From: a virus
Taxonomy: Duplodnaviria; Heunggongvirae; Uroviricota; Caudoviricetes
DNA length: 25,186 bases
Virus record (IMG/VR): IMGVR_UViG_2563366883_000011
Strand: one strand, 5' to 3'
Of this stretch, positions 15,001-21,000 are shown piece by piece; within the stretch, counting starts at the first letter, position 1, and the number at the start of each line of letters is the position of its first letter. The position numbers were made by a program.

Positions 15001-18000
15001 CTTTCCACGACCATATAGGTGGTGAGACGTACAGGGGTGGAAATACCGGTCAACATAGAACCCGGCCCAACCGAAGTTGGCCCTGCACGCCCCACCATAA
15101 TTTGGGCGTAACGATGCTCATGACACGAAAAAACCGCATGAGCGCGGTTGTGCTCTATATTGAATTTCGGGTTTCCACGCCCGGCACCCGCTTTATAAGG
15201 TGCCGGAACAGTGTAACGTCCCGGAATTGCAGAATCAATATGCTGGTGGTCCTTCACACTCAACAAAATCACGCCTGAATTTCCACAAAGGACTAAAGCA
15301 CTCATGCGGGTAGTCTTTGCGAAGATAGATAACGCGCTGTGTTTCTGGCTCCCAACGAATAACATGGACATAAAGCCCTCTTCCGTCACGAAACCAGCGG
15401 TTAAGTTCCTGCACAACTCGCCCCCCACAGTCAGGTAAAGTTCTCTGTGGTTACTTACAGCCAGGTGATTTGGTAATCTGCATTCATGCCGTAACAACAG
15501 GTGTTCAGCGACGCTGACCACCAGCTGTTGCGACAAACGGTTATTTGCCGTTAAACTATTCATGCGTTAGTTTCTCCACAACCAGAAGCAATCGACGCCA
15601 CGACGCCCGGAGCTGCACACTCGCGGGCGTTACTATTTTCTGGAGCGCAGAAGATTTTGTAGACCAGTGCTGCATGCTCCTGGAGCTTCGAAATTGAAAG
15701 ATACAGTTCGTCGTTAATTGCTGTCTTCTCATGCGGTTCCACTACACCGTCTTCGATTGCTGAACGAATCTGTCTGGAATAACCGCCGATCTGTTCAATG
15801 ACTTCCAGCAGGCGCTGGTTTATATCGGCGTTCTCTACTGCCTCAATTTCAGGAAGCGATACGAACACCCCACCAGCAGACTGTGCGACAGCATCCGCAA
15901 TGTAGTGAGTGCCAGCCGCACGCTGTAAAACCATTGCCCATCCCAGCGGGAAAATCTGATCGCCATCTGCACGAAGGCGGTTGAATAAAGCGTTCTCTGT
16001 TACATCCAGCCAGTCAGCAGCTTCAGCGTAACCCCCAGGCAATGCCGCGATAGTTTTTCTGACAGCTTTCACGTACCACTCAGGTTGTTTTTCCACTTTC
16101 CAGTGATGCTTACCCACGGCTTACCTCCTGTTCCTGTGGTTTAAACCCATTCTGGTTTTGGCTAGATTGAAAACGTGCCGGATAAAGAATCTGCATTTCG
16201 CTGATTTCACCCTTAAAAAAATTGGCCAGACGTTCTGCAAGATCGATAGATGGAATTTGTTCCAGTCTTTCAATACGACTCAGCGTCGCTGGATTGACCT
16301 GAACGCCCGCAGCAACATGCTGCAAAGTAAATCCGTGCGCCTTACGCACATTCCGTAATGGTGATTGCATATAACCTCCACATATTGCGTGATGAGCATA
16401 TTATTTCACGCAAATATTTTGCGCAAGTTGATTTGCTTAACGCGCAATAAAGAAATGTAATAAACGCATGAACATAGGAAATCGAGTCAGACAACTTCGC
16501 CAGGCGAAGAACATGAAAATCGCCGATCTCGCTGAAGCAATAGGAGTGGATGCGGCGAATATCTCGCGCCTCGAAACAGGTAAGCAGAAACAATTCACTG
16601 AACAAGCCCTGAGTAATATTGCCAGGAGCTTAGGTGTTGATATTGCTGATCTCTTTACCTCAGACCTCAAAAGTAATACTGTATGTAAAAACAGTATTAG
16701 TGAGGATGTTGCGCAGGTGAAGGATGTATTCCGTATTGAAATGCTGGATGTCAGTGCCAGTGCGGGAAATGGCCTTATCCAGGGCGGTGATGTCATTGAT
16801 GTGATTCATGCCATTGAATACAGAACTGATAATGCTGTATCGATGTTTGGTGGACGACCAGCAAATCACATTAAAGTTATCAACGTTCGTGGGGACAGTA
16901 TGTGTCCAACCATTGAGCCAGGAGATCTCATCTTCGTTGATATCAGTATCAATCAGTTTGATGGGGATGGTATCTATGTGTTTGGTTTTGATGATAAAAT
17001 TTATGTCAAACGACTGCAAATGATACCTGACAAACTACTGGTAATTTCTGATAACCAGATTTACCGTGAATGGGGAATTACCAGCGAAAATGAACACCGG
17101 TTTATGGTCTTTGGAAAGGTCTTAATCAGCCAGTCACAAACCCTTAAGCGACACAATTAACCCTTACCTCCTCATCAATTAGCCACCCGAAGGTGGCTTT
17201 TCATTACTCATCAAATTGCATATCTCGCAACAAAAATACTTGCATAATGCGCAACTTCATTTTATCTTTCTTTCCAGACCAACAAACAAGGTACTAACAA
17301 AATTTGGTTGTAACACGGCGTATGGCACATGCGTCGTTAGCGGTCTGGGGACGTTAAAGGAGACAATCCACTCCTTGCTCGGGCAAACAAACCAGGTAGC
17401 CGGAATGTGCAAGTCAATGATGATGCTGATAAGACGCCTAACCAGCGTGGCGATTCGGTTTGACGCCTGGGAAGAGACCAGGGTGCAACGATGAGGGCAT
17501 TTATGGAACCGCGACAAAGTGTGGTGCCGTAACTGGCTAAGTGCTCTCAGTGTTGTGGTGAAGGCGCAGGCTGATGCGCGAAAGACATTGCAGCTATTGC
17601 GGAAAAGAGCTGTTCGGCGGGGCAATTAAACGCCCGTGAGAGTCTGAAATAACCGCAAGCCGGAGATCAGCACCGGTCACCACAACAGCCACTGCTTTGG
17701 CGGTACCAGTTTGTACACTTGCTTCCGGCTGGTACCGCTCTTTTTACAAAACAGAGAAGAGCATCACCGGACGACGGGCTCATAACCCAATCCATCCGGG
17801 CGGCTGCCACCGCAGGTGTTCTTCTCTGTTTTGTGGGGAAACCAACCGACCTTGCAGGGTCGATATGATGAGGAGCAGCAAAATGGCTAGCGAACGTAGT
17901 ACTGATGTGCAGGCATTTATCGGGGAGCTGGACGGCGGCGTATTTGAAACCAAAATCGGAGCTGTTCTCAGTGAAGTCGCTTCCGGTGTGATGAACACGA

Positions 18001-21000
18001 AAACCAAAGGTAAGGTCTCGCTCAACCTGGAAATCGAACCGTTTGATGAGAACCGTGTGAAAATCAAACACAAACTCTCATATGTTCGCCCGACTAACCG
18101 CGGGAAAATTTCCGAAGAAGACACCACCGAAACGCCGATGTATGTCAATCGCGGTGGTCGCCTGACTATTCTGCAGGAAGACCAGGGACAATTACTGACT
18201 CTTGCCGGTGAACCTGACGGAAAACTCCGCGCAGCAGGTCATTAATATCGTTCTTAATTAACCGATTATTTATCTCATCACTGAATATCTTTATATAGTG
18301 AGGACTTATTATGTCTCAGAACTTAGACGCAACCGCAATTAATCAAATCCATTCCCTTATTTCTGCTCAGGGTGTTAATGAAATTATCAGTAAGATTGGT
18401 GCCGATGCTGTGGCATTGCCTGAGAATTTCCGCATTCATGATCTGGAAAAATTTAATTTAAATCGCTTCCGTTTCCGTGGTGCGCTTTCCACTGCCAGCA
18501 TCGATGACTTTACCCGTTATTCTAAAGATCTTGCAGATGAAGGCACCCGCTGCTTTATCGATGCCGATAATATGCGAGCAGTCAGTGTGCTTAACCTGGG
18601 TACTATTGATGAACCAGGTCACGCAGATAACACCGCCACTCTCAAACTGAAAAAGACAGCACCGTTCTCTGCCCTGTTGTCTGTTAACGGCGAGCGTAAC
18701 TCCCAGAAGTCACTGGCAGAATGGATTGAAGACTGGTCCGACTACCTTGTGGGCTTTGATGCTAATGGTGACGCTATTCAGGCAACAAAAGCGGCTGCGG
18801 CGGTCCGTAAAATCACGATTGAAGCAAACCAGACCGCTGATTTTGAAGATAATGACTTCAGCGGCAAACGCTCCCTGATGGAGTCTGTCGAAGCGAAGAC
18901 CAAAGATATTATGCCAGTGGCATTTGAATTTAAATGCGTTCCGTTTGAAGGTCTGAAAGAACGTCCATTTAAATTACGCCTCAGCATTATCACTGGCGAT
19001 CGTCCTGTACTGGTTCTGCGCATTATTCAGCTGGAAGCAGTGCAGGAAGAAATGGCTAACGAATTTCGTGATCTGCTTGTTGAGAAATTCAAAGACAGCA
19101 AAGTAGAAACCTTTATTGGTACTTTCACCGCCTGATTTCATTACTGCAAATGCTCCTGCGGGGGCATTTATGGAAACGTAATTAACTCAATAATCGCCGG
19201 ATGGTGCGGGATTCCTTTTACCCGAATTCAGCGCGGTGCAGCGCATATAAAGTGGAGAACGAAATGTCATTTATTAAAACTTTTTCCGGGAAGCATTTTT
19301 ATTATGACAAGATAAATAAAGACGACATCGTGATTAACGATATCGCGGTTTCCCTTTCAAATATCTGTCGCTTTGCAGGACATCTTTCACACTTCTACAG
19401 TGTCGCCCAGCATGCGGTGCTTTGCAGCCAGCTGGTGCCGCAGGAATTTGCTTTTGAAGCGTTAATGCATGATGCAACAGAAGCGTATTGCCAGGACATC
19501 CCCGCACCACTGAAACGACTTCTTCCTGACTATAAACGGATGGAAGAAAAAATAGACGCCGTAATCCGTGAGAAATACGGGTTACCTCCTGTTATGAGCA
19601 CGCCAGTGAAATATGCCGATCTCATCATGCTGGCAACCGAACGCCGCGATCTCGGACTTGATGATGGCTCTTTCTGGCCTGTATTGGAAGGTATCCCGGC
19701 AACAGAGATGTTCAAAGTGATTCCACTGGCACCGGGCCATGCCTACGGGATGTTTATGGAACGCTTCAACGAGTTATCGGAATTACGCAAATGTGCATAA
19801 CTCATGTAGTTAGTTTTTCTGGCGGGAGAACATCTGCATATCTTGTTCACCTGATGGAAGAACAAAGAAAGGCTGGCAATAACGTCTGCTACATCTTTAT
19901 GGATACCGGTTGCGAACATCCGCTGACATACCGCTTTATTCGGGAGGTTGTGAAGTTCTGGGGCATACCGCTAACTGTGTTGCAGGTCGATATAAATCCA
20001 GAGCTTGGGCAGCCAAATGGTTATACGGAATGGGAACCAAAGGATATTCAGACGCGAATGCCGGTGCTTAAACCGTTTATGGACATGGTTAAAAAGTACG
20101 GTACGCCATACATCGGCGGCGCATTCTGTACTGACAGGCTAAAACTCACCCCTTTCACGAAATATTGCGATGACCATTTTGGGCGAGGGAATTACATCAC
20201 ATGGCTGGGTATTCGTGCGGACGAACACCGTAGGCTGAAACCGAAACCGGGCGTCCGGTATCTTGCCGAGCTGTCAGATTTTGATAAGTCGGATGTTATC
20301 CGGTGGTGGCGTAAACAACCTTTTGATTTGCAAATCCCGGAGCACCTCGGGAACTGTGTTTTCTGCATCAAAAAGTCAACGCAAAAGCTGGGGATCGCAT
20401 GTAAAGACGAACCTGGTCTGATGCGGGTTTTTAATGAACTGGTTACAGGCAAACACGTCCGGGATGGTCATCGCAGAACAGGTAAAGACGTTATGTACCG
20501 TGGTCACCTGACGCTTGACAGGATTGCCAGAATGTATGCCGACAGCGACTACAGAAGTTTGTATCAGGCGATGGTGCTGGCCAAGCGGTTTGATACTGGT
20601 TCGTGTTCCGAATCATGTGAAATCTGGGGTGACCAATTGGAGTTGAAATTCGAAGAGGTAGTGGCATGACAATCGTAAAAACCCATACCGGTACCGTGAT
20701 CACCAAAGATGGACCGCAGGTAAAAAAATTGCACCAAACAGAACGGATGTGGGTCGTCGGCAAAAACGAGTTTTACCACAAAGAAACTGGACGCCGCCAC
20801 TTTGCAGAAAATACGCGCCGCCGACTGCTGTTAGACACCATCAAGCCTATCGAGGTGAAGCATGTTTAAACAGAACGAAAAAGCTATCGCTCAAATTGCT
20901 GATTATATCCCGCGTGCGTGCCGGGGTATGCAGTTGCAGGAAGCCAAAGCGCGCCTGGAGAAAAAAATTGCGCTCTATATCGATGACGGCTGTGATGCTG

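Follow-up and report, generated by a model that had tools for sequence, protein, structure and literature searches.

What heads the leftward early operon of a lambdoid prophage that opens with the yfdP, yfdQ and yfdR genes of the Escherichia coli K-12 element CPS-53, and what might these genes contribute to the phage? The question is raised by a 25,186-nucleotide (nt) Caudoviricetes sequence (IMG/VR record IMGVR_UViG_2563366883_000011), the whole of which we refer to as the window. We found that it encodes intact orthologues of CPS-53 YfdP, YfdQ and YfdR, and that the gene set and its arrangement are ordinary, already named and annotated. The names yfdP and yfdQ, and "5'-deoxynucleotidase" for yfdR, are in use in RefSeq, the genes are present in more than half of the complete E. 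coli genomes and they occupy the same place in several phages; the finding as first stated was thus already known and adds little. The most interesting item at this locus is not the genes but a conserved leader RNA of 102 nt in front of them, which is supported by covariation and appears to be undescribed.

The RNA (minimum free energy [MFE] –66.5 kcal/mol, z-score –5.1) comprises a 21-bp outer stem enclosing a hairpin A, with the sequence CCGGA-CGAC-GGGCUCAUAACCC-AAUCCA-UCCGG, and a hairpin B, which varies. With a covariance model (R1) made from eight variants, we recovered a single copy in the window, at the coordinates given in Table 1 (116.8 bits), and no second one. Across 43 distinct sequences, 95.9% of the cells are paired, with compensatory changes at 10 pairs, in an alignment that was fitted to the covariance model and hence leans towards structure; slid controls gave 40–56% pairing with 0–2 compensatory pairs. 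We placed the RNA on the plus strand because of its G-U pairs and the much lower score of the reverse strand (38 bits). The ~115 nt that immediately precede yfdP share ~84% identity between the E. coli and Salmonella copies, while the proteins encoded downstream are only 58–61% identical in amino acid sequence.

The apex of hairpin A, GGGCUCAUAACCC, is the anticodon stem-loop of the initiator tRNA-fMet. The tRNA sequence used for this comparison, which contains TCGGGCTCATAACCCGA, matches E. coli tRNA-Met genes at 100%, with a median of four copies per genome. The core GACGGGCTCATWAYCCAATCCA was found in at least 120 IMG/VR stretches, and a literature search returned no publication containing the core sequence. 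We considered and rejected the possibility that the element is itself a tRNA, as neither ARAGORN nor Rfam detects a cloverleaf and only the anticodon arm is tRNA-fMet-like: ARAGORN calls no tRNA in the window or at the late-type copies described below, and Rfam gives no match to the element even at E ≤ 10, the tRNA family (RF00005) included. A boxA-like reading of CGCTCTTTTTACAA was likewise discarded, since its GCTCTT is not kept in other variants.

The element is found in front of several kinds of gene. The first downstream open reading frame (ORF) is yfdP for 159 of 188 copies, this being the number of copies in the fetched loci with a callable first downstream ORF, a sample biased towards yfdQ loci. 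Other copies directly precede yfdR (six loci), a 305–309-residue RdgC-like gene (Pfam RdgC, E 7e-55; seven loci among others) or an excisionase-like ORF. The alternation of yfdPQ, yfdR and the RdgC-like gene behind the leader RNA looks like cassette exchange at one slot. Shorter copies are present in the leaders of late operons, as in Klebsiella phage RCIP0034 (locus L093, 3005–3081), Pantoea phage PA-1 (locus L098, 2492–2596), where the copy sits in the late region, and three further loci. The Klebsiella phage copies lie directly 3' of a tRNA-Arg(UCU) gene in a tRNA cluster, upstream of genes for small membrane proteins (holin-like by sequence) and a signal-arrest-release endolysin. These short copies have an outer stem of 6 bp with ACCA or GCCA after it, resembling the acceptor end of a tRNA, and ARAGORN does not call them.

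Taken jointly, these observations allow a reading that we put forward tentatively, as possible though doubtful: the RNA would represent an undescribed class of phage cis-acting leader RNAs with an invariant apex mimicking the initiator-tRNA anticodon arm, heading early-left operons and, in a short NCCA form, late operons, and possibly controlling the first gene by engaging a factor that recognizes tRNA-fMet; YfdP and YfdQ, in turn, would possibly constitute a new two-protein, DNA-associated oligomeric phage machine. Candidates for such a factor may include the P site of the 30S subunit together with IF3, MetRS and RNase P, as well as a VapC-type anticodon nuclease, toward which the leader RNA could act as a decoy or sensor. 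As a candidate for a novel mode of gene control in phages, a leader RNA with an initiator-tRNA-like arm is concrete and testable.

Turning to the genes themselves, the initial annotation had described products of 120, 274 and 178 residues in the order yfdP-yfdQ-yfdR, an intact cluster and an HD phosphohydrolase motif in the third protein. The ORF list bears out the lengths and order exactly, and the three complete ORFs encode proteins that are each ~99% identical to their K-12 CPS-53 counterparts (Table 1; BLASTP against the CPS-53 genes of one K-12-type genome), so that the proposed homology holds. For yfdP and yfdR, the automated ORF calls are longer (17697–18245 and 19201–19800, both plus strand), with internal ATG codons at 17883 and 19264 giving the 120- and 178-residue products. 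These shorter starts are supported because three lines of evidence agree: ribosome-binding sites precede them (GAGGAG at 17870–17875, 7 nt 5' of the yfdP ATG; GGAG 5' of the yfdR ATG), the N-termini of homologues line up with them, and the RefSeq annotation of near-identical genomes uses them. The window YfdP matches phrog_204 (E 1.2e-49); PF27127 is present on YfdP homologues, and the Pfam set used locally has no model for it. YfdQ matches Pfam PF10065 (DUF2303) over profile positions 2–269 of 269 (E 9e-92, 307.5 bits against a cut-off of 26.6), as well as phrog_210. YfdR matches phrog_318 (E 4.5e-110), a family named "deoxyribonucleoside 5' monophosphate phosphatase". In an alignment with the solved HD protein Atu1052 (PDB 2gz4; E 1.9e-13), its residues H50, H69-D70, E73 and D119 fall opposite the HD residues; the third protein accordingly carries the H...HD...D metal-binding residues that define the HD superfamily, as had been claimed.

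Table 1. Positions of the early-left genes, the leader RNA and the neighboring control elements in the window
Feature	Coordinates	Strand	Description
cro-like gene	16110–16370	–	
cI-like repressor	16468–17160	+	helix-turn-helix (HTH) and S24 peptidase domains; Pfam Peptidase_S24 E 5.9e-19, HTH families
Intrinsic-terminator-like hairpin after cI	17181–17198	+	7-bp stem with 5 G-C pairs, then TTTTCATT; terminator scan
Candidate OL/pL	17216–17268	+	operator-like sites TTGCATATCTCGCAA (17216–17230) and TTGCATAATGCGCAA (17240–17254)
Possible promoter (putative, weak)	–35 at 17240–17245; –10 at 17263–17268	+	TTGCAT, 17-nt spacer, TATCTT; hexamers read by eye
Long leader	17269–17700	+	no credible gene; only short or overlapping ORFs
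Terminator-like hairpin	17701–17745	+	CGGTACCAG...CTGGTACCG, then CTCTTTTT; read from sequence, in MFE fold; directly before the leader RNA
Three-way-junction leader RNA (102 nt)	17741–17842	+	directly upstream of yfdP; covariance model, MFE fold
Apex of hairpin A, GGGCTCATAACCC	17776–17788	+	identical to tRNA-fMet anticodon stem-loop; three G-C pairs and loop CUCAUAA
Small hairpin CGACCUUGCAGGGUCG	17847–17862	+	between the leader RNA and the ribosome-binding site GAGGAG; sequence and fold
yfdP	17883–18245	+	120 residues; 119/120 identical to K-12-type YfdP
yfdQ (DUF2303)	18311–19135	+	274 residues; 270/274 identical to K-12-type YfdQ
Possible hairpin AUGCUCC-UGCG-GGGGCAU	19150–19167	+	yfdQ-yfdR spacer; putative, read from sequence
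yfdR (HD-domain phosphohydrolase)	19264–19800	+	178 residues; 176/178 identical to K-12-type YfdR
PAPS-reductase-like ATP pyrophosphatase	19791–20669	+	overlaps the yfdR stop by 10 nt; Pfam PAPS_reduct E 4.7e-9, phrog_424

The initial annotation had further treated the three genes as one module, and this did not survive comparison with distant relatives. As a search of IMG/VR for related loci returned near-identical E. coli prophages only, we drew eight distant loci from an annotated phage collection, namely those of Stx phage VT2phi_272, ST64B, Pseudomonas pAN, Xanthomonas CP2, Vibrio FGH, Vibrio 1.232.O, Psychrobacter Psymv2 and Acinetobacter fJoAci01. In all eight, a YfdP homologue is encoded directly upstream of a YfdQ homologue (hidden Markov model E-values 5e-14 to 2e-66), just as yfdP lies directly 5' of the DUF2303 gene in the window, whereas a YfdR homologue is nearby in only two. 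Across the same collection, YfdP and YfdQ occur in 180 and 184 records with the same taxon profile, while YfdR occurs in 333 records with a different one that includes Bacillus, Caulobacter and Rhizobium phages; in some prophages, moreover, the leader RNA is followed directly by yfdR without yfdPQ. The set is therefore a composite of two cassettes, an obligate YfdP and YfdQ pair and an independently distributed HD phosphohydrolase, YfdR. The two genes of the pair accompany each other in temperate and apparently virulent phages of Enterobacterales, Pseudomonas, Xanthomonas, Vibrio, Psychrobacter and Acinetobacter, and the YfdQ family alone forms 1781 representative clusters at 50% identity. YfdP and YfdQ form a large family that is worth studying as a pair, apart from YfdR.

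At close range, the arrangement is common. Megablast recovered the stretch 17600–19900 in 3133 of 5426 complete E. coli genomes, 2442 of which hold at least 80% of it. It is also found at 97–98% DNA identity in phages mEp460, PhiR63_1, phiSTEC1575-Stx2k, 1720a-02, Stx2a and Stx2c phages, Ayreon, 2H10 and cdtI, and the leader element is shared by SfV (96%). In mEp460, Ayreon, ST64B and phiNP, as in a near-identical prophage, the repressor gene is followed by a gap of 700–1000 nt and then by yfdP, yfdQ and yfdR.

The placement of the set as the first genes of the early-left operon was confirmed: yfdP, yfdQ and yfdR are the first credible ORFs downstream of a cI-like repressor gene (whose best match is named an XRE family regulator in RefSeq), on the strand running to xis and int, and hence the first three genes of a lambdoid prophage leftward early operon. 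After cI come a terminator, the operator-like sites, a long leader, yfdP, yfdQ, yfdR, a PAPS-reductase-like gene, small ORFs, an Ea22-like gene, two unknowns, xis (23612–23866) and int (23900 onward), all of the genes after yfdR being on the plus strand; on the minus strand, ymfL-like and Rha-like genes lie farther along beyond the cro-like gene. Exact matches to TTGC-N7-GCAA occur in the 25 kb only at 16433, in the cI/cro spacer, and at 17216 and 17240, immediately past the cI terminator. When one mismatch is tolerated, the number of sites overall does not exceed chance, and it is the clustering of the exact matches that carries the argument. Because these sites sit at the expected places and the operator-like block 17216–17268 is conserved in Salmonella phage ST64B, an OL/pL region after cI is supported and immunity control is plausible. 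The hairpin after cI is also conserved in the ST64B leader. The claim that the cluster sits under an immunity-controlled promoter thus stands as plausible, with the qualification that a ~600-nt leader, a terminator-like hairpin and the structured RNA intervene.

The leader between 17269 and 17700 folds unremarkably (z –1.77), aligns poorly to that of ST64B, with indels that are not multiples of three, and has no Rfam match even at E ≤ 10; the ORF listing shows no N-like ORF in it. We rejected a gene in this leader, given its short or overlapping ORFs, and the minus-strand ORFs annotated here in some phage records look spurious. Homology to HK022 put was also rejected, as the leader has no similarity to the HK022 pL-nun region, in which putL lies. 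Hairpins with T runs precede the RNA element in other variants too. Farther downstream, the annotation of phage Ayreon has a terminator at the position that corresponds to the possible hairpin in the yfdQ-yfdR spacer. As a separate observation, the motif GGGCATTTATGGAA is present at 17495–17510 in the leader and again at 19161–19176 in the same spacer; where variants lack yfdPQ, a sequence resembling the yfdQ-yfdR spacer adjoins the RNA element, and the motif may mark a recombination junction.

What might YfdR do in such an operon? The initial annotation had pointed to reports that CPS-53 YfdR binds DnaA and that the yfdQRST cluster, when overexpressed, inhibits replication initiation. The paper exists and says so: multicopy yfdQRS or yfdQRT suppresses the over-initiation of the hda-185 mutant and inhibits initiation, and purified YfdR binds DnaA in a Phe46-dependent manner and is a moderate competitor of DiaA and DnaB (Noguchi and Katayama, 2016; PMC4776307). 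The same work shows that inhibition needs yfdQ and yfdR together with either yfdS or yfdT, yfdP being dispensable (PMC4776307). The window has yfdQ and yfdR and neither of the other two, as tblastn with K-12 queries detects no YfdS or YfdT homologue at E ≤ 0.01; the only trace in it is at the C-terminus of the product of ORF 22184–23128, where 16 residues match DUF551. Since YfdS and YfdT are absent from the window, the published inhibition phenotype is not simply transferable to this phage. The binding of DnaA domain I, for its part, would be expected of the YfdR encoded here from its 99% identity to the assayed K-12 protein.

For YfdP and YfdQ, several observations of context point to DNA metabolism. 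In VT2phi_272, gam-recT-exo-ssb lies immediately upstream of the yfdP and yfdQ homologues; a Rad52-like gene, a helicase and exonucleases are found near them in other distant loci; and in sibling prophages an RdgC-like gene fills the slot of yfdPQ behind the same leader RNA. The sensitivity of yfdQ deletion mutants to methyl methanesulfonate (reported via PMC4776307) fits such a role. The AlphaFold2 model of YfdQ (mean predicted local distance difference test [pLDDT] 78) is an alpha/beta protein, and its residues invariant across distant homologues include H104 (in the motif PGHAD), R166 and S188. That of YfdP (pLDDT 71.5) shows a long N-terminal helix and a 3-stranded sheet, followed by a conserved C-terminal tail of low confidence, which would fit a partner-binding segment. 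A sequence search further matched YfdQ to PDB entry 9o7m, "YfdQ Protein" (E 3e-45), whose 36 chains suggest that YfdQ may form a large oligomer. Our literature search found no publication on this entry, and a YfdP profile search of PDB gave nothing credible and hence no sign of a YfdP partner in 9o7m.

Bringing these lines together, the account that we favor, and judge somewhat probable, runs as follows. Inactivation of the S24-type repressor would allow transcription from a pL-like promoter at ~17240–17270 to run through the leader, and expression of yfdP would then be set by read-through of the terminator-like hairpin and the three-way-junction RNA before the ribosome-binding site. YfdR would bind DnaA domain I through Phe46 and compete with DiaA and DnaB, as shown for the K-12 protein, thereby damping initiation at the host oriC in early lytic growth, with a weak deoxynucleoside monophosphate (dNMP) phosphatase activity being secondary. 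YfdP and YfdQ, which occupy the genomic slot filled by an RdgC-like protein in sibling prophages, would act as an oligomeric accessory in the replication, recombination or repair of phage DNA, as their context suggests. A number of results weigh against this account. The inhibition phenotype was seen with multicopy genes, deletion left initiation unaffected, and an overexpression artefact is a possibility raised by the authors themselves (PMC4776307); the absence from the window of the YfdS and YfdT homologues noted above adds to this. The strict promoter scan made no call at the TTGCAT/TATCTT hexamers, and the hairpin at 17701–17745, with its unusually long loop, may not terminate transcription. 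The DNA-metabolism role of YfdP and YfdQ is deduced from gene neighborhood and slot sharing, and VT2phi_272 has the pair alongside RecT, exonuclease and SSB, so that it is not simply their substitute. Neither model has a PDB fold match at E ≤ 0.001 (Foldseek; entries to 2026-04-08, a set that did not include 9o7m), and a BFVD fold search with YfdQ returned other DUF2303 proteins only. No fused domains were seen in the best 150 of the 1781 representative YfdQ homologues, which are mostly 250–300 residues long with a few shorter fragments, and the PADLOC defence models gave no match to YfdP or YfdQ.

Three other explanations have to be set beside this one. The initial annotation had offered a nucleotide-pool module as one candidate, in which YfdR would mainly dephosphorylate dNMPs and reshape the host pool, perhaps with the PAPS-reductase/SspD-like enzyme, its DnaA binding being incidental. 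The HD metal ligands and catalytic Glu are indeed intact, the PHROG 318 and RefSeq names are both of the nucleotidase type, yfdR overlaps, at its stop, the start of the enzyme gene that follows, and YfdR-like HD proteins occur in many unrelated phages. However, YfdR scores only 19.9 bits against the cut-off of 122 for the NCBIfam YfbR equivalog (NF003009) and falls below the Pfam cut-offs for YfbR-like (24.3 against 25.9) and HD_3 (17 against 22.5), and the RefSeq name appears to have been taken over from the K-12 protein and not from the YfbR models. Further, deletion of yfdR did not raise the yield of cytidine monophosphate in an engineered strain, and the affinities with which YfdR binds nucleotides are reported as far below YfbR's, its function being elusive (PMC4776307, citing Zimmerman 2008). 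Because of these affinities, the idea is weakly founded, and we regard it as unlikely. Still less probable, in our estimate, is that the three genes are kept for stress tolerance of the host or for effects on other phages and not for the phage's own lytic growth. Their survival intact in the cryptic CPS-53 remnant of K-12 and the wide occurrence of the stretch in E. coli genomes (see above) would agree with this, as would the stress phenotypes of CPS-53 genes cited in PMC4776307 and a preprint in which deletion of yfdQ abolished, and production of YfdQ restored, a phage-dependent demarcation line and plaques of phage SW1. Yet no PADLOC defence model matches YfdR either, the location of the genes downstream of operator-like sites and of a terminator-like hairpin points to their being silent in the lysogen, and the pair also occurs in records without an annotated repressor or integrase in the stretch examined (Xanthomonas CP2, Vibrio FGH), a point that counts if those phages are virulent.

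The remaining alternative bears on regulation alone and does not conflict with the gene functions suggested above: transcription from pL would end at the hairpin and U run at 17701–17745, and the structured leader RNA would mainly govern output, which could come about by processing, by ribosome recruitment via the initiator-tRNA-like arm or from an unidentified promoter. It is suggested by the hairpin and T run that directly precede the element in many variants, by the far better conservation of the element than of the flanking leader and the proteins, by its presence in late-operon leaders right after tRNA genes, and by a leader that lacks both an N-like ORF and similarity to HK022 put. A strict scan and reading by eye, on the other hand, revealed no sigma-70-like promoter within or after the element, and the hairpin loop is longer than in typical terminators; on this evidence we think it rather improbable, and continue to prefer the account in which transcription reads through from the pL-like promoter.

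Other features of the window merit brief mention. The product of the PAPS-reductase-like gene resembles the phosphorothioation ATP pyrophosphatases SspD (PADLOC E 1.8e-15) and DndC, and a phage-borne copy in an early operon could have a DNA-modification or anti-defence function. In VT2phi_272, the same gene follows the YfdQ homologue with one small ORF between them. Downstream of it in the window, ORF 21672–22187 (plus strand; 171 residues) matches phrog_9263 and phrog_631, and the next, ORF 22184–23128 (plus strand; 314 residues), has only the C-terminal match mentioned above to DUF551, which is the domain reported for K-12 YfdS. Rfam matches at gathering score lie downstream of the Q region, namely two to STnc100 (6892–7101 and 7379–7584, minus strand) and one to the anti-sRNA AsxR (6836–6888, plus strand). 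Two more, to C4 antisense RNA (15015–15102) and isrK (15127–15203), both on the minus strand, fall inside a 383-residue Rha-like ORF (14412–15563). These matches suggest a P1/P7-type antisense-controlled antirepressor arrangement, in which case the Rha-like ORF call may be too long.

Several known systems help to place the locus. YfdR shares with YfbR, the E. coli 5'-deoxynucleotidase, the HD fold family and the H...HD...E...D residues, and differs from it in its weak sequence similarity, under the Pfam and NCBIfam cut-offs, in its much lower reported nucleotide affinities and in that the K-12 protein additionally binds DnaA. The RdgC-like genes of related prophages stand in the same slot as yfdP here, as the first gene after the same leader RNA; neither YfdQ nor YfdP shows detectable sequence or fold similarity to any PDB entry of known function, and the equivalence is positional only. 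CPS-53 (KpLE1) of K-12 has the same three genes in the same order, with the same lengths and 99% amino acid identity. However, its homology to the window begins only at 17864, so that K-12 lacks the repressor, operators, leader and RNA element; yfdP there abuts a truncated replication gene, and the element continues with yfdS, yfdT and torI where this phage has the PAPS-reductase-like and Ea22-like genes.

The pL operons of lambda (nutL/N) and HK022 (putL) resemble that of the window in running leftward from just past the repressor gene to xis and int, in having operators related to those at OR and in placing a leader RNA element before the first gene. They differ in that the window lacks an N-like or Nun-like ORF as well as similarity to the HK022 pL-nun region, and in that its RNA, in which any role in antitermination would be hypothetical, forms a three-way junction with a tRNA-fMet-like arm and follows a terminator-like hairpin. 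Close parallels are also mEp460, SfV, cdtI, Ayreon, the Stx2c and Stx2a phages and ST64B, which share the succession of cI, terminator, long leader, RNA element, yfdP, yfdQ and yfdR, while their immunity regions and the genes after yfdR vary; mEp460, for instance, has a YfdS-sized gene like SfV orf29 where the window has the PAPS-reductase-like gene. In ST64B, the proteins (sb37-sb36-sb35) have diverged to the 58–61% identity noted above, with the operator block and the RNA element conserved. That the interaction of YfdR with DnaA matters has so far been deduced only from multicopy experiments with a cryptic prophage, and inducible phages such as mEp460 provide a natural setting in which it may do so during infection.

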